In this document: one piece after another, positions 2,253-47,672 of the stretch | How the letters are laid out: every line of letters starts with the position of its first letter | Numbering within the stretch: position 1 is the first letter of the stretch | IMG/VR virus record: IMGVR_UViG_3300029610_000357 | Span: 52,285-116,284 of that record | Direction: 5' to 3' (one strand) | DNA from: a virus | Lineage: Duplodnaviria > Heunggongvirae > Uroviricota > Caudoviricetes | Length of the DNA: 64,000 bases | The notes under the pieces: model-generated | Databases searched by the model: none | Told to the model about the DNA's origin: nothing | Seen by the model: only the letters and a program-made list of their open reading frames with translations | Translations under genes and position numbers: made by a program

Positions 2253-2262
2253 TTGGACATAG

Positions 2263-2335
<73 letters not shown>

Positions 2336-2519
2336 ACAAAAAGAGTACATTGTAACTACCAACAATGTACTCAAACTTAGAAAAGAGGTATAAATTATGA
2401 TTCCTACAAGAAATCTTAATAGCTTTGTAAATCTTTCTGAGGTATGAAACAACAGTAGAAAAGCGCAATAATCAAAACTTCACAAGAAAGGAGATAATAT
2501 GATTCCTCAGAAAGATTAA

Positions 2520-2591
2520 CAGGGATAACTGGATTTGAACCAGTGAATACAGCAGTCAAAGTGCTGTGCCTTACCGCTTGGCGATATCCCT
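2520..2591 (-). tRNA. tRNA-Gln(UUG)
   Basis: Acceptor AGGGATA/TATCCCT, anticodon arm CAGCA-CTTTGAC-TGCTG, T-arm ACTGG-TTCAAAT-CCAGT. Confidence 0.9.
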
Positions 2592-3204
2592 ATATGTATT
2601 TTAATTTTAAAGCAGGTCTTCACCTTACAGTCATTTGTGGAATAGTTTGTTCTGCAACATAGTAGATAAGTCTGAGCTTCGAGGAGCGACCTCTAACTTC
2701 TTACCTAAGTCTAAAAGACCAGTTCTATGACATGATCAATACATGCAATGTCAACCCACCATTCAGAATTAAGTTTTATTGTTATATACTCTATTAGCAT
2801 ATATATTCATTTTGAATTTGAACTTGCCCTTAACTGACTTGAGCGACATACCAGCGACTTTTCTTATACACTGTCTTTTGAACAGCTTCACATCAAACTA
2901 CATTATTTGGCTTTTCCACCTTTTACGTACCTGCCAGAGTACGCATTGAAGTGGATTATTCTCCACAGGAGCGTCTATTGTTGTAGCGAAAAGTTCTGTG
3001 CGTTAACCAGACCAAAATGCTGCACAATATCCATTTGCTTGAGAGTTTCTCTCTTGTCCATATCAGATCACTCCGACATAAAAAGAGACACAAAGAACGT
3101 ATCCGTACAATGTATCTCTCCAATTCGACATATGTGCCTAGAATATCTCTCGGACTCATGGCATTGAGTTTTATAACCGAGTTGCTTATGTTTTAAAATA
3201 CAAA
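2592..3204 (-). other. 613-nt ORF-free spacer inside the tRNA array (possible co-transcribed structured RNA)
   Basis: Flanked directly by tRNA-Gln and tRNA-Trp. Only short overlapping shadow ORFs without RBS, and no tRNA fold found by eye. Confidence 0.3.
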
Positions 3205-3276
3205 CACCCTAAGCTGGATTTGAACCAGCACGAACGGTTTTGGAGACCGTCATTCTACCAACTAAATTATTAGGGC
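3205..3276 (-). tRNA. tRNA-Trp(CCA)
   Basis: Acceptor GCCCTAA/TTAGGGT, anticodon arm ACGGT-CTCCAAA-ACCGT, T-arm GCTGG-TTCAAAT-CCAGC. Confidence 0.85.
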
Positions 3277-3283
3277 GATATTA

Positions 3284-3357
3284 CTGACATGACAGGACTC
3301 GAACCTGCAACACCAACGTCCGTAGCGTTGTGCTCTGTCCAGTTGAGCTACATGTCA
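3284..3357 (-). tRNA. tRNA-Arg(ACG)
   Basis: Acceptor TGACATG/CATGTCA, D-arm GCTC..GAGC, anticodon arm CAACG-CTACGGA-CGTTG, T-loop TTCGAGT. Confidence 0.9.
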
Positions 3358-3570
3358 ATAACGAATATGTATTTACCTCTCATACGTACACACTGGCGAG
3401 ACAATACATATTTCTAAAAAGCAACAGTGTGTAAGTATTGCTTTTCTAGGGCGAACTGAAGTGATGAACTCCATCAGAATATCAGAAGAGGTATACATTC
3501 CAATATCCACCAACCATCAGGGTGTTCGCATATTTTTTGGTTAATCTATCGTATAGTTACTAACCTAATC

Positions 3571-3656
3571 ATCCCTGTTGAGGGAATCGAACCCACTCGT
3601 GACCGAAGCCGCAAAATTTACAGTTTTGCCTGTCTCCTTAGCAGTATAAACAGGGA
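3571..3656 (-). tRNA. tRNA-Tyr(GUA), type II with long variable arm
   Basis: Acceptor TCCCTGT/ACAGGGA, anticodon arm GCAAAA-CTGTAAA-TTTTGC, variable arm GGCTTCGGTCAC, T-loop TTCGATT. Confidence 0.8.
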
Positions 3657-3695
3657 TATTAGCCCACAAGTCCGAAGAACATTGTAGGACAAACA

Positions 3696-3770
3696 TCACA
3701 CCAACGAGAGTCGAACTCGTATTGCATCCGTGAAAGGGATGTGTCCTAAAACCATTTAGACGATGGTGCG
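3696..3770 (-). tRNA. tRNA-Glu(UUC)
   Basis: Acceptor CGCACCA/TGGTGTG, Glu-type D-arm GTCT..AGGAC, anticodon arm CATCC-CTTTCAC-GGATG, T-arm ACGAG-TTCGACT-CTCGT. Confidence 0.85.
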
Positions 3771-3776
3771 ATTTAG

Positions 3777-3868
3777 CGTACGGACTGGGCTACGACCCCA
3801 GGATACACATGTTCGTATGTATACAGGATTAGCAATCCTGCGCATTAAACCAGCTCTGCCACCCGTAC
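3777..3868 (-). tRNA. tRNA-Ser(GCU), type II
   Basis: Acceptor GTACGGG/TCCGTAC, anticodon arm CAGGA-TTGCTAA-TCCTG, 22-nt variable arm, T-arm CTGGG-GTCGTAG-CCCAG (non-canonical T-loop). Confidence 0.8.
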
Positions 3869-5213: not shown

Positions 5214-6068
5214 TTATTTTTTGTCAGAATTATAGTATTTGGTATATCTATTTAACTGCATTTCACTCTTACAAGAAGTACAATACTGTCTAAGCCGTCC
5301 TTTACGATGCTTTTTCTTTTTTGAGATGTCTCTAAAAGGTTCTCCACAACAGGAGCATACAGAAATCTCAGGATATCCAATAAAGTGAAGGTATCTGTTC
5401 CCAAGATTCTTGAAGTCTGTAATCTCAAGAGCAACATCTCCTGAATCGACAAGAATATCTACAGAGAAGTTTAAGCTATTAACTTTCTTGCTCATTGTTA
5501 TACAATCGCTTCTGAACAGCCTGCCGATTATTTGGCATCTACGTTCTCTTGTACCTACTGTATTACCCAATGAGAATAAATATTTGTAGTCTGTATTCAC
5601 CCAATTATTGTTTTGAGGATTCAGAGCATTATAATACTTGGCCAAGCAAAGAGCAGTGAAGAGAATCTTTTGATCTCTAAGATTCTCTAACCCATTTATG
5701 GTTTCCATTTCAGACTCATAGATCGGCAGTGAATCAATTTCCACAAGAGGATACTTTTTAGCTTTGTGAATGATCTCATCAATGCATGAATACCATTTAG
5801 CTTCTCTGTAGCTCTCACAGGACTCTTTTAAGAACTCATTGATAGTTTTATATACCTGTGCAGGTTCTAAGCCTTTCTCGTGGATGTAATACTTTGCAAG
5901 CAGGGTAGCAGTATATGGGATACTGCTTTCCAACTCTTTTGTTTCTAAAATTTTTTCTACCAGTGTTTTTTCATTCAGTACGATATTAATAACAATCAGC
6001 CTCCTCAAACATAGATGATTCAATTTGTTTAATAGTTTCAATGACGAAAGAATCTCCGTCATATTCAA
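5214..6068 (-). CDS. hypothetical protein with C-terminal zinc ribbon (CSCCG..CTSC); start uncertain
   Basis: ORF track. The 5' 83 nt overlap the upstream gene, so the true start may be internal. Confidence 0.5.
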   Translation of the reverse strand: MNMTEILSSLKLLNKLNHLCLRRLIVINIVLNEKTLVEKILETKELESSIPYTATLLAKYYIHEKGLEPAQVYKTINEFLKESCESYREAKWYSCIDEIIHKAKKYPLVEIDSLPIYESEMETINGLENLRDQKILFTALCLAKYYNALNPQNNNWVNTDYKYLFSLGNTVGTRERRCQIIGRLFRSDCITMSKKVNSLNFSVDILVDSGDVALEITDFKNLGNRYLHFIGYPEISVCSCCGEPFRDISKKKKHRKGRLRQYCTSCKSEMQLNRYTKYYNSDKK

Positions 6069-7128
6069 AATCTCCTGATTCAGCTCTTACAGGATAAGAG
6101 ATCTGGTGATAGTTTCTCTCTAAGAGTCTTTGGACAAGGATGTCTCCAAACATGTCCCATACAAACTGCTTACTCTTGCCATTGGTATAGCAGAGGTCAA
6201 GAAGAATGTCACAAGCTTTCTCAGGATCAGGAACAGCAGTGGCAACAGCTTCTCTGAACAACATGACTCGGTTATTGATGATGTCTGTTACATTTAGTCC
6301 AAAGACACCCCGGCCATTGATTAGAGCATTCAGGGTTTTCATTTTCTTTGAATACTCGCTGTATAACTTCTTAAGAGCATAATAATCATTCTTGTTGTAC
6401 TCATGATCTCTTTTGAGAATGGAGTAATCAAAATCTGTTTGTGTATTCAACTTCTTTAAGTAGCCATCAAACTCATCCTCAAAGAGCTTACAGATTCGAT
6501 TCATTACACAAGGCCCTGTACCTACAGGTAAGAACTTATAGTAGTGATCTAAGAATTCTGCTTCATCCTCTGTGATAGGTTCTGTATCAGCTTTCTTGAG
6601 CAATTCATCAATCGTGCATCCAAACCAGATAATACATTTATCGTTTGAAGCTTTCACATAATTTGTGTAATCCTTTCTCAGGTGAGAGTAAATGTAGATC
6701 ATGAAGTATGGTTTCTTGTCAGCTACGATTCTCTGATTGAATTCTTTTCGCTTACGATCCTTTGATGAGTCTTCAGGATGGATGTTGTTGTCTTTTCTGT
6801 TATACCAGTAAGATGGGATAGGTTTACACACAATGCCCTTCAATTTGTCAATCGAATTTTGTTGGTATAGCTGACCGCAAATGATTCTGTAATCCAGTTC
6901 TTTAAACTCATCACTGTCAGGAGAGTAATGAGACTGTACTTCAAACTGAGAAGTGATGATGTTTGTTGTGAAGCCAATTTCGTCTCCAAAGGCATCCTTG
7001 TAAGCTTTTAAAATGTCTTTTCGTTTAGGGACAATCTTGTTAGCTTTGCGTTGAGCACAAATGATTGATGGAAGAGGACGATTGTTTTCAACAAGTATTC
7101 TATTGTTAGTTGTGAAGAAGAGGTCTCC
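5986..7128 (-). CDS. YonO-like single-subunit two-barrel RNA polymerase candidate, exon 2
   Basis: Frame stays open upstream of the track start. Own translation from 7128 gives GDLFFTTNNRILVENNRPLPSIICAQRKANKIVPKRKD...LKGIVCKPIPSYWY. Length is 1143 nt (381 codons), joining in frame to exon 1. Confidence 0.6.
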   Translation of the reverse strand, partial: GDLFFTTNNRILVENNRPLPSIICAQRKANKIVPKRKDILKAYKDAFGDEIGFTTNIITSQFEVQSHYSPDSDEFKELDYRIICGQLYQQNSIDKLKGIVCKPIPSYWYNRKDNNIHPEDSSKDRKRKEFNQRIVADKKPYFMIYIYSHLRKDYTNYVKASNDKCIIWFGCTIDELLKKADTEPITEDEAEFLDHYYKFLPVGTGPCVMNRICKLFEDEFDGYLKKLNTQTDFDYSILKRDHEYNKNDYYALKKLYSEYSKKMKTLNALINGRGVFGLNVTDIINNRVMLFREAVATAVPDPEKACDILLDLCYTNGKSKQFVWDMFGDILVQRLLERNYHQISYPVRAESGDFEYDGDSFVIETIKQIESSMFEEADCY

Positions 7129-7464
7129 CGATGTACCCTCGGTTTCCCGATATTTATGGAGAAAGGGGACTAGACTATATCATTACACAGCATAGGTCTT
7201 ACACTGTGATGCTCGGCACTTCCCTTGGGGAGTTTCACCCTTTTGGTACTCTACTTGCTACCGATACCGTATTCCTCGAATATCAGTGCTTTGGATAGTC
7301 GTTTGACTTTCAATTTCTGCTTAGCACAGGATTACCACCGGCATTACCCGCTGAGGCTCCCCTGTTAGCATATGCGTTAACTTCCATTTCCTGAAGCTAC
7401 TGTACGTCACATATACACCTTACATTTGTAAGTTCACCGAGTTTTACTTCGACCAAGTAAACTA
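7129..7464 (-). ncRNA. group I self-splicing intron, ORF-less (336 nt)
   Basis: 5' exon ends UUCGAU. The intron guide GUCGAA (11 nt in) pairs with it, giving a U.G wobble at the splice site. The intron ends ..GGUACAUCG (terminal G). It contains GAUAUAGUCUAGUCC and is homologous to the intron at 56040-56387. Confidence 0.7.
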
Positions 7465-9114
7465 ATCGAAGTCGCAACCGTTAAGTGATTCACATGTATT
7501 ATCCCAATCATTGATCACACAAATGGATGGGAGATACTGGAACCAGTATGAAAGCTGCTCATTGTTCTTCACTTTAAGATTGACGATGTTATAATGGCTT
7601 GTCATTGGAGCTCTGAAGCAAGCTACTTCATCAACCTGTCTATCGATCCAATGCTTGTGATACATTTCTCCTGCTTTAAGCAATCCTGTAACTTCAAGTC
7701 CAAACATGGATTGCATGAGAGCATATGGATCACCAGCAACGATTGAATAATTACCTTTCACTTTGATGCGTCCGATCTTAGCATCTTGGATTCGTTTCTT
7801 GATGAGAGAATGAATCTTAGATCGAATGAAAGGATCTTTGATCATCTCAGGTTCAGCTATGAGTGCCTGAATGTATGTAAAAGCATCTGACTGTAAGATG
7901 TTCTTCTCAGTCATATTCTTACCTCGCAGGAAGAGCAGAGTCTTTCTGTAATCCATCCCAAGAATGTCTTTGATCTCTTTTATGGTTGGCTCACAAAGCT
8001 CTCTTATTTGGTCGTCTGTAAGATAATAGCTCTGTAAGAACTGATAGTTAAGATTCCTTTCAGTATCACATTCTTGTTCGGCTGTTTTGGCAAGAGCAAA
8101 GTGATAATCATACTTCTCAATGTTCTCTAAGTAGTCTTCCATAGAGTCATATGCATCCCATAGCTTAAACATAGATGTTGTAAGTATCACCTGAGCGTCT
8201 CTAACGTCCCTAGGATGGCCCCAAGCATCAATAATGGTATAAGTCTTAGCTACGTCCTCTGCAAAGGCTCTAAAGTCCATACAGTGAAGCATACCTTTAC
8301 AGAATGGCCATCCTCTCATGTTGCCAGATGGAAGAGGAGTATCATAATCTCCATTCAGTTCACCATTCCATTGTCTTGCAAGTTCTGGAAGAACTAATCC
8401 TTCTCCATCAGACCCATTGTGTACAAACTCTTGATCATCAAGAAGAGTTACTTCTGGTTCATCTGAGTTTGTATCATCCACATAAAGAGCTTGTCCCTTA
8501 AAGATCGTCTCACAGTCTTGTACAACAATCACTCCTGATGGTGGAGTAACAACTGTAGAAGAAGAGCAGAAGAGTGCTTTGTACGCTCCGAGCTTGTTTG
8601 GTATGATCGGAACTTCTTTATTCCTCCCGGCATCTACTTTCTCACAGAGAGCATCGTATACATTGTCACTGACAAAGATTACAACACTGTTCTTTAAGCC
8701 TCCTGTGGTTCCTAAGAAGAGATTGTAGTGGAGATCATTTACAATGAATCCATGCTTGCTGCAGTAGTCATAATCTTTCTTTGTGTCGAAGACCACTGTG
8801 AGGTAGTCTGTTTGGAATCGACATTTGTACAGATCATTGTAGAGTAGTGAGATAAGTTCTTTGCTTCCTCTGTTGGCTGAAAGCTCTTTGATCTTCTTTC
8901 GGATTCTTTTTGCTCTTATGTCTGAATCATAGTCATGGATCAATGAGTCAATTGTTCTTAATGCTTCAGAACTTGAAAGAGTAATAATGTCGTCTCCATT
9001 CTCCCTCGCTTCATTGAGTGGTAGAGAAAGTTTCCACTTCGCCTTTCTTAATCGGCTGCTGTGTAGTTTGTAAATATATTTCTGACTCGTTTTTTGCTTA
9101 GAAATAATGATCAC
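7465..9114 (-). CDS. YonO-like single-subunit two-barrel RNA polymerase candidate, exon 1
   Basis: 550 codons ending ...CESLNGCDFD. Splicing to exon 2 restores NGCDFDGD, resembling the NADFDGD/DxDGD metal-binding motif of two-barrel RNAPs. Confidence 0.6.
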
Positions 9115-9340: not shown

Positions 9341-9374
9341 AAAAAAGACACGCTTTTATGCGGGTTTAAGATCC
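9341..9374 (-). promoter_or_regulatory. conserved 33-nt box, copy 1 (AAAAAAGACACGCTTTTATGCGGGTTTAAGATCC)
   Basis: Near-identical to 11324-11356. Minus sense contains CGCATAAAAG, resembling the ATCATAAA boxes of the right arm. Confidence 0.35.
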
Positions 9375-10502
9375 AATTCGGGGGATAAAACTGGGACCCA
9401 TGATCCAGTGCTTTTTGCCTCCTTGAAAGAGCATATCAACGACTTTTCGAACATCTGTTCCATAGCGAGCATATCTTTTTGACCAAAATTCTGTAGTAGA
9501 TAATTCATATACAGAAGTTAATGAATCGATTACGTCTTGAGGAGTTCCTTCTGGGAATTCTTTTAGACAACTGTAATAAGCTGTAAGATTTTTAATCAAC
9601 TCTTCCTTCTTTGACTGAGCATTTTTTAAAACTTTTGGTTTAAAAATTTGTTGAATTCTTTTCTGATAAGTATAGAATTCGTACTCTCTTAAGTAGCTGT
9701 GCTCATCTGGATAAAGATACTCAGGCTCGATCACATACTTAAAATAAAGTTTGGAAAACTCCTTATGAGATTTAAGTGCCTTTAGGAATTTTGGATAAAC
9801 TTCTGGATATAATCTCACAGTTGTAATGTCAAGATCGTGTTTTGGTATGCGGAGACTATCACATAAAGTATCTTCATAAATCTTACGTTCTTTTTCTGTG
9901 AGATCTCTGAGTGGTTCGAATGGACTGCTGCCACATACGATTCGTTTTTTCTGTCTGATGATTCCTCTATTTTCCATACTTACAAGCAGATTATAAAATC
10001 GTCCATGTGCTAAATTCTGCATACTCTCATAAGCTGTGTCGAAGTATGTACCAGGATATTTATCAAACTTATCAAGGTCGTAATCTTTCTTCTTTGCTGG
10101 AATGAGTCCAAGCACTTCACACCATTTGTTCTTATCCCAATTTTCATTGATGTGGTTGTCTAAGATATGGATGATCATCATTTCCATCATATAGTTGATT
10201 CCCATGAAAGGACTTCTAAGTTCCCAAGAGAATGGGTTCTCAATATATTCACCTTTGATCTTTGTGATTTTAATCTGACCATCTTTCTGCTTCTTTGTAC
10301 ATATGAAGTGATCAAGATTTGCTTTGTGGACTGCATAGTGACTCTTTCTGCCTTCTTTATCGATTCCAACTAATTGAAGAATGTCTGAGTACTTGTTGTA
10401 CTTGTGGCCTTCTTTCAGATTGGATAAATCGAAGAGATGTTGTTTTTCTTTCATGAACCAGAATTGTTCAGCTAAGTAATCGTTTCTTTCTTGTATCGTC
10501 AT
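9366..10502 (-). CDS. hypothetical protein (378 aa)
   Basis: ORF track. AGGAGG RBS (plus-strand CCTCCT at 10510-10515). No motif recognised. Confidence 0.6.
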   Translation of the reverse strand: MTIQERNDYLAEQFWFMKEKQHLFDLSNLKEGHKYNKYSDILQLVGIDKEGRKSHYAVHKANLDHFICTKKQKDGQIKITKIKGEYIENPFSWELRSPFMGINYMMEMMIIHILDNHINENWDKNKWCEVLGLIPAKKKDYDLDKFDKYPGTYFDTAYESMQNLAHGRFYNLLVSMENRGIIRQKKRIVCGSSPFEPLRDLTEKERKIYEDTLCDSLRIPKHDLDITTVRLYPEVYPKFLKALKSHKEFSKLYFKYVIEPEYLYPDEHSYLREYEFYTYQKRIQQIFKPKVLKNAQSKKEELIKNLTAYYSCLKEFPEGTPQDVIDSLTSVYELSTTEFWSKRYARYGTDVRKVVDMLFQGGKKHWIMGPSFIPRIGS

Positions 10503-11060
10503 TTTTGACCTCCTTTTTGCTGTTTCTTTTTGTTAATTCAATGAAAAAATGCATTTGTCTGAGTAATGACACTTTTCTTTCGATAAATTCACATTACCAC
10601 AGATGTAGAGTAAAATCAATAGTTTTCTGAAGAAAAAATAAAATTGTGCGAGCAATGACACTTTTTATTTCATTTAAGTACGTTTAAGGAGGCTTAGACT
10701 GGGATTTTTATGTCAAGTGTTTTTTGGAAATTTCTTAAAATAGTGCTTTCTTTGGCTGTTTTACTTGGTTTGTTCTGGATTTTTCTTTGACTTGTTGTAC
10801 TTAGATGGGTAGAAATATGGCTGTTTTATGCGATTGTACAAAAATAAAATAAATTAATTCTTTATATGCTAAAGTATTGACTTTTGAAAAATCAAGTGTT
10901 TTTTGAAAGAAATTTAAAAAAATTTTTACCGTGTGGAATTCTCAGAGAAGGGGTTTGCATTTATATAAGAAGAGCTTGGTTTTTGAAAAAATTTCAGAGA
11001 GATGGGTTTATAGCAGAACAGGTGTTCTATATTTTAGAGTGTGTTAAGAGGTGCGTTTCT

Positions 11061-11167
11061 GGGGAAAGTTTTTATGAGGGGGAGGGGTGTATGTGGGGGT
11101 GTTTGGAAAGAAATGTTGGGGATGTTTTTAGGGGGTTTTGAGGGGGTTAAATGGCGTAGATGTGGGG
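11061..11167 (+). repeat. cluster of nine G4-G5 tracts (G-quadruplex-prone)
   Basis: GGGG/GGGGG runs at 11061, 11078, 11084, 11095, 11118, 11131, 11142, 11164 and others, within ~107 nt of an otherwise AT-rich genome. Confidence 0.6.
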
Positions 11168-11323
11168 TGGAGAAACGTCTGGCTGAACTTGTGGTATAGA
11201 ATTACCAGCTATACAAATATCAGCAAAACTGCGATTTAAAAATAGTTTTAAGTAGCCCCCTAAACACTTGTAAAAGTCCGTAAATAACTATTTACTTGCG
11301 TTTTTGATCAGAAATAGATAGTC

Positions 11324-11356
11324 AAAAAAGCACGTATTTATGCGGGTTTGAGACCG
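11324..11356 (-). promoter_or_regulatory. conserved 33-nt box, copy 2 (AAAAAAGCACGTATTTATGCGGGTTTGAGACCG)
   Basis: Direct repeat of 9341-9374. Confidence 0.35.
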
Positions 11357-12327
11357 TTTGAAAAGATTTTTAAAAATAATTTTTTTAGGGTATTGCAATA
11401 TTTTCGTGGGCATGGTCTTATACAGTTGTTCAAACGAACAGGGAACTTGATAAAACAACAACCGGCAAGGGTTGTAAAACGTGCTTGCCAATATTTCAAC
11501 ATAAAAAGGGGGTAGCCCTACCCCTGTATAAAAATTGGGCGTGTACCTTGATAACTGAATAAGTCTGAATCCGTTCGGCAAGTCTCCGAACAGGTTCAAA
11601 AAATCAGTTTCTTTGGAAACTGAACGACAGGCTAAAACTCTGCCCTGTTACTCATTCGTGACAGGCAGACAAGTAAACCTTTGACTTATTGCCTGTACCC
11701 AATGTCACACGAACGTGGTACAGGATTTATAAGAAGTCGTTGCAAGTCCAAAGAAGTGTAGCAGATTTTTTGAATCGGTTCGCAAAAATACAGGTAGTGA
11801 CAGCCTGTAGACAAACTACCAAACAGACGAAAGACTTCCTAAACGATATATTTTATATTGCTTAGTATAGTCGATATGACAGGGTGTCAAACATTGACGG
11901 TTGACCCAAAACACGTTCACATACTATAAGTCCCTGTGGTGGTGGGGTCCTGTCTTTCAAGTGTTTGAGAAGCGTTGTTGTTGACACTATAACAGAGTAC
12001 CGCCCACGGTAGAAAGTTCTAACAGGCACGACAACGGCTCTCATTCGAGCTGGGTATATTGTGCATTGAATACTACTACTTATCTAGTTCAACGGTAGGA
12101 GACTAGACTCTGTGAAATAATAGGCTATGACAGGTGCAACCCCTGTATAGTATCGAGTGAGTGCATGAACACTTGCGAGCGGTCAAAAGTCCCTTTAGGG
12201 ATAATATTAGAACTCTGTGAGTTCATTAGAATACACCTAACAGGTGTGGTCTAATGAGTTCATAGGAACTCAATGCAACAAATACATATTTTTTAGGGTA
12301 CGACTGTATCCGGAATAGGAGTTTATC

Positions 12328-13305
12328 ATGAGTAGAAAATCAACAAAAACAACAACAGTAGCAAACATTACACTACCAGTCCGTAAAATGGACTTCACAG
12401 AAGCAACTAAAGAATTCCGTACTCTTTGTCGCAATTTCTACACAGATTTTGAGAAAGTCGCAGAGAACAGGGAAGCTCTACGAGCAGAGAAAACAGAGTG
12501 TGAAGAACACTTTGACACTCGAGTAAACAATGCTTTTGACGTATCCGAACCTGTGGATACAGACAAAGAATTACCAGCGGAGTATGCAGACCTTAGGAAT
12601 ATTCTAGAAAAATATTCTGTAATACAGGCTACAGGTCTGCTTTCTAAGGAAGATAATGACTATCTTTCTGCACTTTGCGATAAGTGGAAAAAAGCTGACG
12701 CAAAGATTAGAAACTTAAAAAATCCAGTGCCTGAGAAGTCTCTAGTTGTAGATGCAATCTATGACCTATACAAGGGATGCTCTACAGATATGAGTGAAAA
12801 CCGTGACGGCTACGCTCGTAAAGTCAAGGGGTTCTTTGAATCTAAAGGCATGACACTAACTTCTTATGGTTGGGATGTGTTCAATGCTTCCATTGGGTTC
12901 AATGTGAATAATGACAAAAACTTCTTAGAGACAGGTAAGTTCTTCAACCCTATCAAAAAGAGCAAGTTTGTAGAAAGATTCTATATGTTCTTCTGTGAGG
13001 GGTTTGTAAGTGCAGATTGCTTCCCTAAGACTAAGAAAGCACGTCATGTAGATGCAGAAGAACAGGCACCAGTGGCACCTCAGAAAGTTGAAACACCTGA
13101 GGAAGTACATGAAAAGTGTGCAGACGCTCGTGCTGAAATCTCAGCTCAGAAACTGGGTACAACTGAGTCCAAACCAATGGACAAAATGACAGTGGCAGAG
13201 TTACGTACTTTCATTAAGAAACATGATACAACTGCCAAAGTATCTAAGTTGAAAAAAGCTGACTTAGTAGCTATGGCTACAAAGTTCACAAATGTAGCAG
13301 CTTAA
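12328..13305 (+). CDS. hypothetical protein with C-terminal SAP/HeH (Rho-N-like) motif
   Basis: First gene of the rightward arm. GGAG RBS. C-terminus MTVAELRTFIKKHDTTAKVSKLKKADLVAMATKF. Confidence 0.6.
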   Translation: MSRKSTKTTTVANITLPVRKMDFTEATKEFRTLCRNFYTDFEKVAENREALRAEKTECEEHFDTRVNNAFDVSEPVDTDKELPAEYADLRNILEKYSVIQATGLLSKEDNDYLSALCDKWKKADAKIRNLKNPVPEKSLVVDAIYDLYKGCSTDMSENRDGYARKVKGFFESKGMTLTSYGWDVFNASIGFNVNNDKNFLETGKFFNPIKKSKFVERFYMFFCEGFVSADCFPKTKKARHVDAEEQAPVAPQKVETPEEVHEKCADARAEISAQKLGTTESKPMDKMTVAELRTFIKKHDTTAKVSKLKKADLVAMATKFTNVAA

Positions 13306-20977: not shown

Positions 20978-21086
20978 AATTTTAGGGCTTCGTCAAGATT
21001 GCTACAAAGTAATCATTGATGGAGTCCTTTTTAAATTCCCAACAGAACAAGAGTTTTTGGAATTCTTAGAGGAGATTGAGATATGA
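20967..21086 (+). CDS. small ORF (39 aa), coupled at both ends
   Basis: Own translation MSIKILGLRQDCYKVIIDGVLFKFPTEQEFLEFLEEIEI*. ATGA overlap with the next gene. Confidence 0.35.
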   Translation: MSIKILGLRQDCYKVIIDGVLFKFPTEQEFLEFLEEIEI

Positions 21087-32481: not shown

Positions 32482-32631
32482 GGGGACATAGCTTAATAGG
32501 TAAAGCAAAACTATATTTTTCCATAAAGAACTTAAAACTAAAATTTTCATATTAAATATAAACATTTTGTACCTCCCTATTGTAATAAAATAACACTTAT
32601 ATTTATGTGGGTTCGAGTCCCACTGTCCCCA
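32482..32631 (+). tRNA. tRNA-like gene interrupted by a ~75-nt AT-rich insertion; anticodon unresolved
   Basis: GGGGACA-TA-GCTT-AATAGGTA-AAGC ... GTGGG-TTCGAGT-CCCAC-TGTCCCC-A. Acceptor, D- and T-arms are perfect, but no 5-7-5 anticodon arm can be drawn. Confidence 0.45.
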
Positions 32632-47214: not shown

Positions 47215-47291
47215 ATGCAAAATGCTTCACAATATGAATGGAACATGGTAATATATAAAAAGAACATACGTTCGATAGGAGGTGCTACGAT

Positions 47292-47672
47292 ATGAAAGAA
47301 GCAAAAATAAACATCAGAGTGGTAACAGAAGAGGGGGACTACATTGTCGCTGGAAATGTTAGCACAGATTTTAAATTAGCTGCACAAATAAAACGATTAT
47401 ATAATGAAGTTTTATCTGAAAGCGAATTGGTCAAAGTTAAATATAAAAGTGAGGATGATAGTGTTCTAGTTGAACAGGATTATTATTATCCAACTATTAA
47501 TATAGAAGAGAACATTGTAAGTATATTTGATTCAAGAGGCGGAAAAGATATGTCAATCCAATTGCCCGCAATAACAGATATGATTTTTAAAGAAGGAAAT
47601 GGGCGTTTTGATTATACTATAACATTAAAATTACATAGTGGTAAGATTATTTTTAGTGGAATTTTAGAATAG
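47292..47672 (+). CDS. hypothetical protein
   Basis: ORF track; GGAGG RBS. Confidence 0.6.
   Translation: MKEAKINIRVVTEEGDYIVAGNVSTDFKLAAQIKRLYNEVLSESELVKVKYKSEDDSVLVEQDYYYPTINIEENIVSIFDSRGGKDMSIQLPAITDMIFKEGNGRFDYTITLKLHSGKIIFSGILE

Follow-up and report, generated by a model that had tools for sequence, protein, structure and literature searches.

Why would phage DNA of low G+C content keep a dense cluster of guanine runs in the gap between two divergent gene sets? The question is raised by a 64,000-nucleotide (nt) stretch of tailed-phage DNA (positions 52,285 to 116,284 of IMG/VR record IMGVR_UViG_3300029610_000357), the whole of which is here called the window, and in which the cluster, hereafter the array, occupies positions 11061–11167 of the plus strand (GGGGAAAGTTTTTATGAGGGGGAGGGGTGTATGTGGGGGTGTTTGGAAAGAAATGTTGGGGATGTTTTTAGGGGGTTTTGAGGGGGTTAAATGGCGTAGATGTGGGG). 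An original prediction had described nine runs of four or five guanines (G4–G5) within about 107 nt; its coordinates are exact, but there are eight runs, as in the string of runs that the prediction itself gave (Table 1). The 107 nt contain 52 G, 33 T, 21 A and a single C, and the spacers that separate the runs are T/A-rich. The whole window, with a G+C content of ~35%, has 74 runs of G4 or longer, and every other 110-nt stretch has at most about three of them. Among 100 first-order Markov copies of the window the maximum was three runs per 107 nt, and mononucleotide shuffling of the 107 nt reached eight runs in one of 5000 trials. Scoring with G4Hunter, which the prediction had proposed, gives 1.52 over the 107 nt, above the usual threshold of 1.2–1.5, with a 25-nt peak of 2.36 that is the maximum of the window. 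The full G-rich, C-poor block is also the top 150-nt window for G minus C in the 64 kb. The array is thus indeed far beyond the local base composition, as had been claimed, and it does lie in a divergent control region, namely within a 1.8-kb gap free of open reading frames (ORFs) between divergent genes (10503–12327). Two short frames that overlap it, of 52 amino acids (aa; 11041–11199) and 85 aa (10884–11141), were rejected as coding because 1-nt insertions or deletions (indels) within the G-runs of relatives break them, and a 26-aa frame at 10711–10791 is shortened by stop codons in two related contigs (L063 and L060). The observation is confirmed; the array does not code for protein and has no equal in the window.

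The function to which we give roughly an even chance is one at the DNA level: by analogy with the phages discussed below, the array would be a recognition component flanking the packaging site (pac), within the region where packaging is initiated, probably as a landing pad for the small terminase. The argument starts from the gene order. To the left of the gap, and read leftward, there is a 378-aa ORF (9366–10502, minus strand) followed by a YonO-type single-subunit RNA polymerase from 9114, while small, early-like genes run rightward from 12328, and the GC skew changes sign at the gap. The polymerase shares 40% identity with its counterparts in Clostridium phage c-st and the Enterocloster phages, and ~29% with YonO of Bacillus phage SPbeta. 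The ORF at 633–1835 is a YonJ-type exonuclease (33% identity, E 7e-64), and the layout of the window matches the SPbeta order yonJ...yonO-yonP, gap, yonR. From the polymerase, the exonuclease and the common layout, it follows that the window is collinear with SPbeta. In related ~130-kb IMG/VR contigs the array region lies mid-contig, as does yonP in the SPbeta prophage. Reads of the phage are present in the sequencing runs SRR11927789, ERR10101712, SRR22974107, DRR198891, SRR27390232, ERR13991710 and SRR10680783.

According to the literature, the pac site of SPbeta, which is the opening point of its genome, lies between yonR and yonP, and headful packaging proceeds toward yonP (Fink & Zahler 1982; Kohm et al., bioRxiv 10.1101/2021.11.22.469490). 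The position of the array is syntenic with this mapped gap, which has the head of the YonO operon on one side and the divergent genes on the other. Within the ~250-bp pac fragment, only inverted repeats are noted in the accessible text of the SPbeta papers, which call the packaging machinery unidentified (10.1101/2021.11.22.469490). This fragment (supplement of 10.1101/2021.11.22.469490) maps to positions 8534–8784 of sequence L059; the GenBank record of BUCT082 begins exactly at its right edge, and that of BUCT083 ends exactly at its left edge. Adjoining the left edge there is a C-poor stretch rich in purines and G-runs (L059 8249–8533), which is kept together with the fragment as one module in all SPbeta-like phages. 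In the 14-kb SPbeta locus this stretch is the top window for G skew, and the second-ranked window for C skew is just right of the fragment.

The two loci thus have in common the gap itself, which is mid-prophage in SPbeta, a G-run-rich and C-poor stretch on the strand opposite to yonO beside a conserved block of ~250 bp, the edges of which are DNA termini in SPbeta, and SOS boxes of the form aGAAC-N4-GTTCt (in SPbeta of the form aGAACAaAcGTTCt). They differ in that the SPbeta stretch is A-rich with ATCGTAA repeats and has no dense G4–G5 array, and in that the pyrimidine-rich right flank of SPbeta is absent from the window.

A second comparator is Enterocloster phage PMBT24 (OQ326496.2; L105/L106), which also encodes YonO. 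It is assigned to the pac type by PhageTerm, and its record is opened at the mapped pac site (PMC11035940). The end of the record, 99600–99962, was found to be a 363-nt G-run array (164 G and 11 C, that is, 45% G and 3% C, with 23 runs of G3 or longer) whose end is no more than about 15 nt from the pac terminus, and positions 381–730 hold a mirror array of C-runs (126 C and 10 G). These two arrays are the most G-skewed and the most C-skewed 150-nt windows of the 99,962 bp. In phage CB473P1 (L104; 1300–1600 and 1940–2400) the layout of G-array, core and C-array is kept at 67% identity and, to judge from the sequences, it is the composition of the arrays that is conserved and not their sequence, as in the lineage of the window. 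The record starts of the CB473P1 type were rejected as termini, since they lie in AT-rich DNA and appear arbitrary. The tiny ORFs annotated over the arrays of both phages are probably spurious. That G- and C-run arrays flank the pac site of PMBT24 is an observation of the present analysis, the accessible part of PMC11035940 containing no description of them.

PMBT24 and the phages CB457/CB473 resemble the window in composition (45% G, 3% C), in the flavour of the motifs (..ATGTGGGG.., ..TTGTGGG..), in the mode of evolution, in encoding YonO, and in having an array that ends at a purine-rich junction beside a terminus. The differences are that their arrays are ~360 nt long, consist mostly of G3 runs and are paired with a mirror array ~380 bp away, that the gene context is another one, and that these phages are virulent, with about 100 kb of DNA. 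In PMBT24, on both sides, and in SPbeta the G-rich strand runs 5' to 3' toward the pac core. The array of the window fits this description of an extreme G-over-C segment beside a pac core with its G strand directed toward it, which is a criterion drawn here from the two comparators and not an established one.

How the array changes can be followed among its relatives. Across a dozen contigs the non-coding block from 10503 to about 11440 shows 89–97% identity, and it does so even in contigs that have different downstream genes or only ~54% identity in the 378-aa gene. Among 19 distinct close variants, the array measures 133–136 nt, with 43–48% G, 1–3% C and 3–8 runs of G4 or longer; when three distant lineages are included the ranges become 41–48% G and 1–4% C, with 31% G and 8% C in the most distant one. 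The G-runs hold the most variable columns of the region (36% of them vary, against 14% in the spacers, 12% in the left flank and 0% in the right-hand junction), being ~2.5 times as variable as the spacers. The substitutions in the runs are mostly G to A, and G to C was never seen.

In lineages whose homologues of the 378-aa protein are 58% (L063/L064), 46–53% (L060/L061/L073) and 39% (L062) identical, the elements come in a common order: promoter region, TTGAC...GTCAA, GAAC-N4-GTTC, array, a junction block with the pattern ..ATGTGGG(G)TGG..AAACG.C..ACTTGTGGTATAGAA.., and a promoter-like site. The arrays fall into size classes of about 107 nt with 8 runs, about 190–250 nt with 11–13 runs, and about 300–400 nt with 9–10 runs, and the spacings differ. 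Conservation in relatives, which the original prediction had proposed to check, is therefore one of position and composition, that is, of G-run richness and the exclusion of C; sequence, run number, spacing and length drift. An iteron or centromere array with a fixed spacing, or one of ~10.5–11 bp, was considered and rejected, because the apparent 11/22-nt spacing is neither significant nor shared among the lineages. The 11.5-nt spectral peak has a power of 4.1, below the 95% null level of 5.2, and it was not reproduced in L063, L060 or L062.

The junction block at the right-hand end of the array is nearly invariant. None of the 38 columns in 11168–11205 varies, and the block is recognisable in L060, L073 and L062. 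Purine-rich junctions that resemble it are found at the termini of PMBT24 (..GGATAGTGGGTG..) and SPbeta (..GGATAGGGTGTGG..), which makes it, by analogy, a candidate cleavage or recognition site. The conserved block to the right of the array may likewise, on account of its similar size, correspond to the ~250-bp pac fragment of SPbeta. Variable G-runs next to an invariant junction fit redundant binding motifs beside a specific site. In the mechanism that we propose, the redundant G-run/T-run motifs beside the junction block would provide a multi-site landing pad for the small-terminase oligomer, the large terminase would make the first cut near the array, and packaging would proceed leftward into the YonO and late-gene side. 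We infer from the comparators that this phage would be packaged from this site, that terminase would bind to the runs, and that the cut would fall at about 11176–11190 and/or about 11440. The original prediction had offered three functions, of which a packaging signal is the only one to gain support, through the synteny with SPbeta and the analogy with the SPbeta and PMBT24 termini; for a replication or transcription switch no evidence was found.

It has to be pointed out that a number of observations weigh against the packaging assignment. For this phage the assignment is drawn from synteny and analogy and not from termini, adjacency to a terminus is not proof of a role in packaging, and the terminase genes are outside the window. 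Candidates for the small terminase include the phrog_379 DNA-binding protein at 1842–2252 as well as genes to the left of the window. The array is one-sided, without a mirror C-array. The SPbeta stretch is far less G-rich (27% G), the alignment of the window with the SPbeta pac module is not significant (z 0.7–1.4, Markov-resampled controls), and blastn of the array region against 50,697 phage records gave no match, near or distant. In PMBT24 the array and the pac site are ~9.6 kb from YonO, elsewhere in the genome than the gap upstream of that gene, and the position of pac is not fixed across the wider family. The objection, foreseen in the original prediction, that the array might be absent from syntenic phages holds for the YonO-upstream gaps of PMBT24 (AT-rich) and c-st, which are without G-runs; it does not hold for the relatives of the lineage, all of which have the array, or for SPbeta, which has it in compositional form. 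Finally, the contig ends near the array are scattered, at window equivalents of about 11063, 11113, 11276, 11342, about 11505 and about 11570. Coming from bulk metagenomes, and with several of them inside the array or at a mosaic boundary, they were rejected as evidence for termini; low coverage, G-rich sequence or mosaic boundaries account for them better, and they look like assembly breaks.

Of the alternatives, one is that the array is a G-quadruplex or R-loop element, in which rightward transcription, with the G-rich strand as the non-template strand, would serve a transcription-primed replication origin, as known from ColE1 and mitochondrial CSB II, or a transcription switch. We regard this as unlikely, although several features are in line with it. 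The G clusters are on one strand, C is nearly absent, and the G4Hunter scores are high, reaching 1.5–2.4 in relatives; 33 nt upstream of the array there is a palindrome resembling an SOS box, the array lies where the GC skew changes sign and has divergent operons on its two sides, and priming by a G-quadruplex plus R-loop is reported as established for CSB II. Quadruplex formation, as put forward in the original prediction, is thus possible, but it is not the conserved feature. The canonical motif (four runs of G3 or longer with loops of 1–7 nt) occurs neither in the window nor in the 17 other variants, and when loops of up to 15 nt are allowed most variants have one motif and three of the 18 have none (L036, L073, L062). 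The G-runs are the least conserved columns. In addition, the PMBT24 arrays would need convergent transcription into the core, and neither an adjacent initiator gene nor fixed-sequence iterons were seen as marks of an origin.

The array is located between two divergent promoter-like sites, P_L and P_R (Table 1), and a promoter scan together with reading by eye found no credible promoter that reads into it. A DNA-level role is therefore favoured, and the array is likely to be untranscribed. In folding calculations neither strand of the array was better than shuffled sequence, and Rfam gave nothing credible over 10400–12400. A sigma-70-like site called by the promoter scan at 10588–10616 (plus strand) was reinterpreted as the mirror image of the conserved P_L on the minus strand. 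The idea of a YonO promoter in the gap was also abandoned, since the YonO-dependent start site of SPbeta is downstream of yonN and not in the gap.

Another option is that the complementary strand acts as RNA: a leftward transcript, which would be C-rich, G-free and unstructured, could be a Rho loading (rut) site guarding the YonO operon, or else a leader or a small RNA with CCCC/CCUCC motifs that would pair with Shine-Dalgarno sequences in the manner of RNAs of the RsaE/RoxS type. The minus-strand RNA of the array is fully unstructured, with a minimum free energy (MFE) of 0 kcal/mol, and at ~46% C and 2% G it is C-rich and G-poor over the at least ~80 nt expected of a rut site. Divergent transcription out of the PMBT24 core would also give C-rich RNA on both sides, and a small RNA, ncr1052, is reported in the yonR-yonP gap of SPbeta on the yonP strand, at a position not mapped relative to the purine-rich stretch. 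The array is, however, not part of the operon's own transcript, because the predicted P_L lies to the left of it, that is, downstream. To the right of the array the promoter scan gave no site on the minus strand, and three terminator-like hairpins on the minus strand (11458–11623) would stop leftward transcription before reaching it. This explanation also leaves the adjacency of the arrays to packaging termini unaccounted for. We consider it improbable.

The array might also have no specific function, being a slippage-prone, low-complexity spacer that has become G-rich through mutation bias or by hitch-hiking with conserved neighbours. The 1-nt indels and G-to-A changes in the G-runs, at ~2.5 times the local rate, would be expected in that case, as would the variation in length from about 107 to about 300 nt among lineages and the tendency of contigs to break inside the array. 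However, the extreme composition is kept in place where the neighbouring protein is only 39–58% identical, C is excluded throughout and G to C is never seen, and PMBT24 and the CB phages have, at their pac sites, independent arrays of a similar kind that are the most skewed DNA of the genome. This makes a functionless spacer quite improbable. Least probable of all is a telomere- or Chi-like role in attenuating nucleases of the AddAB/RecBCD type on an injected or cut end, for although the G-rich strand does end 3' at the cut in PMBT24 (both sides) and SPbeta, and would do so in the window with a cut to the right of the array, no fixed short motif is kept and single runs mutate freely, whereas Chi sites are sequence-strict, the B. 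subtilis Chi AGCGG is absent from the SPbeta stretch, and PMBT24 encodes a Gam-like nuclease inhibitor.

Table 1. Positions in the window of the array and of the elements around it.
Feature	Position	Strand	Description
G-runs, start (length)	11061 (4), 11078 (5), 11084 (4), 11095 (5), 11118 (4), 11131 (5), 11142 (5), 11164 (4)	+	
Probable internal duplication of a ~56-nt unit	11061–11117 and 11118–11170	+	repeat families D12, D13
Full G-rich, C-poor block	11036–11175 (approximate edges)	+	46% G, 2% C; sharp borders, AT-rich flanks
Junction block	11153–11215		GGCGTAGATGTGGGGTGGAGAAACGTCTGGCTGAACTTGTGGTATAGAATTACCAGCTATAC; overlapping palindromes TGGTA..TACCA (11192–11207) and GTATAG..CTATAC (11194–11214)
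Conserved block right of the array, ~265 bp	11176–11440		homology among relatives ends at about 11440
Perfect palindrome AGAACAGGTGTTCT (GAAC-N4-GTTC)	11015–11028		Firmicute LexA/SOS-box form; 33 nt left of the first G-run
Palindrome TTGACTTTTGAAAAATCAA	10877–10895		kept as TTGAC-N9/10-GTCAA in L060 and L073 (read from sequence)
Predicted leftward promoter P_L of the 378-aa gene and YonO operon	10591–10619	-	by-eye sequence reading
Operator-like direct repeat, copy 1	10543–10576	+	core GAGTAATGACACTTTT at 10561–10576; family D2
Operator-like direct repeat, copy 2	10632–10665	+	core GAGCAATGACACTTTT at 10650–10665; family D2
Promoter-like site P_R for the rightward genes	11393–11423	+	TTGCAA-N17-TCTTAT, weak; not called by the promoter scan

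Several of the elements in Table 1 are themselves conserved. P_L is made up of a −35 hexamer TTGATT (plus-strand positions 10614–10619), a 17-nt spacer ending in TGG, and a −10 hexamer TAATGT (plus-strand positions 10591–10596), and is thus of the extended −10 type, with TGG-TAATGT at plus-strand positions 10591–10599. Its hexamers are kept in four lineages (TTGATT/TTGACT ... TGnTAtTGT), and it is the probable promoter of the YonO operon. The two 34-nt operator-like repeats, which share the core GAGYAATGACACTTTT, are 89 nt apart and on either side of P_L, an arrangement that resembles the SPBRE/MrpR operator at the yonP promoter of SPbeta; no further good copies were found in the window. The palindrome at 10877–10895 is probably a protein-binding site. 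P_R has better counterparts in L060 and L073, with TTGACA-16-TATAAG or TATAAA.

The palindrome AGAACAGGTGTTCT is the only perfect match of the SOS-box type within the window, and its GAAC and GTTC half-sites are kept in L017-type contigs, L060 and L073, with a varying N4. As SPbeta is, the phage may be connected to the SOS response of its host. Other GAAC-N4-GTTC palindromes are present at 21044–21057 and at 47261–47274 (AGAACATACGTTCG, just upstream of the ORF at 47292–47672).

The ~790 nt between P_R and the first early gene, 11540–12327 (plus strand), fold with an MFE of −247.7 kcal/mol, compared with −196.7 ± 5.6 kcal/mol for shuffled sequences (z −9.2). The minus strand has a z of −6.9, and nested long-range inverted repeats are present (11587–11628 with 11736–11782). 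The non-homologous leader of L063 folds with a z of −4.1, and the leaders of L063 and L062 carry GGTTCGAnTCC, which resembles a tRNA T-arm. No Rfam family matches 11540–12327, and this segment is a possible new non-coding RNA or large structured leader.

As to the neighbouring genes, the 378-aa protein has only six homologues among 5.8 billion proteins, with no match in Pfam or PHROG, nor in a prophage and host search of 185,579 species genomes. The first ~160 residues hardly vary, and divergence in the C-terminal half brings the overall identity down to ~54%, a contrast that points to a recombination breakpoint inside the gene. The YonO-like polymerase gene is split at the catalytic motif by an insertion of ~349 nt (7129–7477, minus strand), into an N-terminal ORF at 7462–9114 that ends in ...NGCDFD* and a C-terminal part at about 5986–6843+. 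The contigs L070, L071 and L073 have an uninterrupted gene of 930 aa, and the yonO gene is split in Clostridium phage c-st too. Against the Rfam group I intron model RF00028 the insertion gives a full-model but weak match (22 bits, E 0.002, below the gathering score).

Downstream of the YonO genes a ROOL RNA (RF03087, 306 bits) was found at 2594–3205 (minus strand), within a cluster of seven tRNA genes (2262–3868, minus strand); the corresponding position in SPbeta is a 1.7-kb gap with an unannotated non-coding RNA and a YonO-dependent start site. An Rfam tRNA match at 32482–32631 (plus strand, 42.5 bits) has no ARAGORN call and spans 150 nt, double the usual size; an intron or insertion within a tRNA gene may account for this. 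In distant YonO phages (about 47% identity, about 50% GC) there is a 92-bp tandem repeat in 3.6 identical copies with many G4–G6 runs, ~4.3 kb upstream of YonO (L039 3436–3769, L054 3635–3768, and the starts of L037 and L055). Two contigs begin inside this repeat and its gene context differs from that of the array; it could represent terminal repeats, iterons or a pac-like array.

Returning to the array as a packaging element, it is useful to compare it with known recognition sites of terminases. The SPP1 pac (pacL-pacC-pacR), the hexamers of P1 pac and the R sites of lambda cosB are repeated short motifs bound by an oligomeric small terminase; they flank the cleavage site and are partly redundant, with a defined sequence and spacing. 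The array would share with pacL and pacR of SPP1 the logic of repeated, redundant motifs by a cleavage site, and differs from the SPP1, P1 and lambda arrays in conserving only composition and the presence of G-runs. The pac1 element of herpesviruses, in which G-runs flank a T-rich element, is reported to form G-quadruplexes in vitro, the role of these in pac1 being unproven (PMC13595911, PMC13386867). The same type of pattern occurs in the array, as GGGGATGTTTTTAGGGGG at 11118–11135 and GGGGGTTTTGAGGGGG at 11131–11146. The likeness consists of the G-run/T-run/G-run order (GGGGATGTTTTTAGGGGGTTTTGAGGGGG), in an element tied to terminase cleavage, herpesviruses being in the same realm as this phage. 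Unlike the array, which is long, redundant and embedded in AT-rich DNA, pac1 consists of one short motif, located in GC-rich terminal repeats and at a set distance from the cut. The resemblance is one of pattern only, and no homology is implied.

What, then, would such an element mean? The pac sites of large SPbeta-like phages have been mapped, and their mechanism is not understood. A pac site is a known kind of element, and G-run arrays at pac are not described in the accessible parts of the SPbeta and PMBT24 papers. In three separate lineages, the SPbeta-like phages, the Enterocloster phages and the present group of uncultured gut phages, the most G-skewed DNA of the genome or region lies directly beside the pac core or its expected position, with conservation of composition only, which suggests recognition by redundant G-runs and not by a fixed sequence. 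Recognition of this kind would help to predict genome ends in metagenomic phage contigs, and would offer a tractable bacterial model for what the G-runs of herpesvirus pac1 do. One may speculate further, in a proposal that we ourselves hold to be rather unlikely, that G-run arrays defined by composition serve generally for the recognition or protection of packaging termini among SPbeta-like and Kielvirus-like phages, possibly by way of G-quadruplexes, other non-B DNA or a telomere-like G-strand at the genome end, and are mechanistically equivalent to herpesvirus pac1. If this were true, it would be a deep shared property of terminases across Duplodnaviria.

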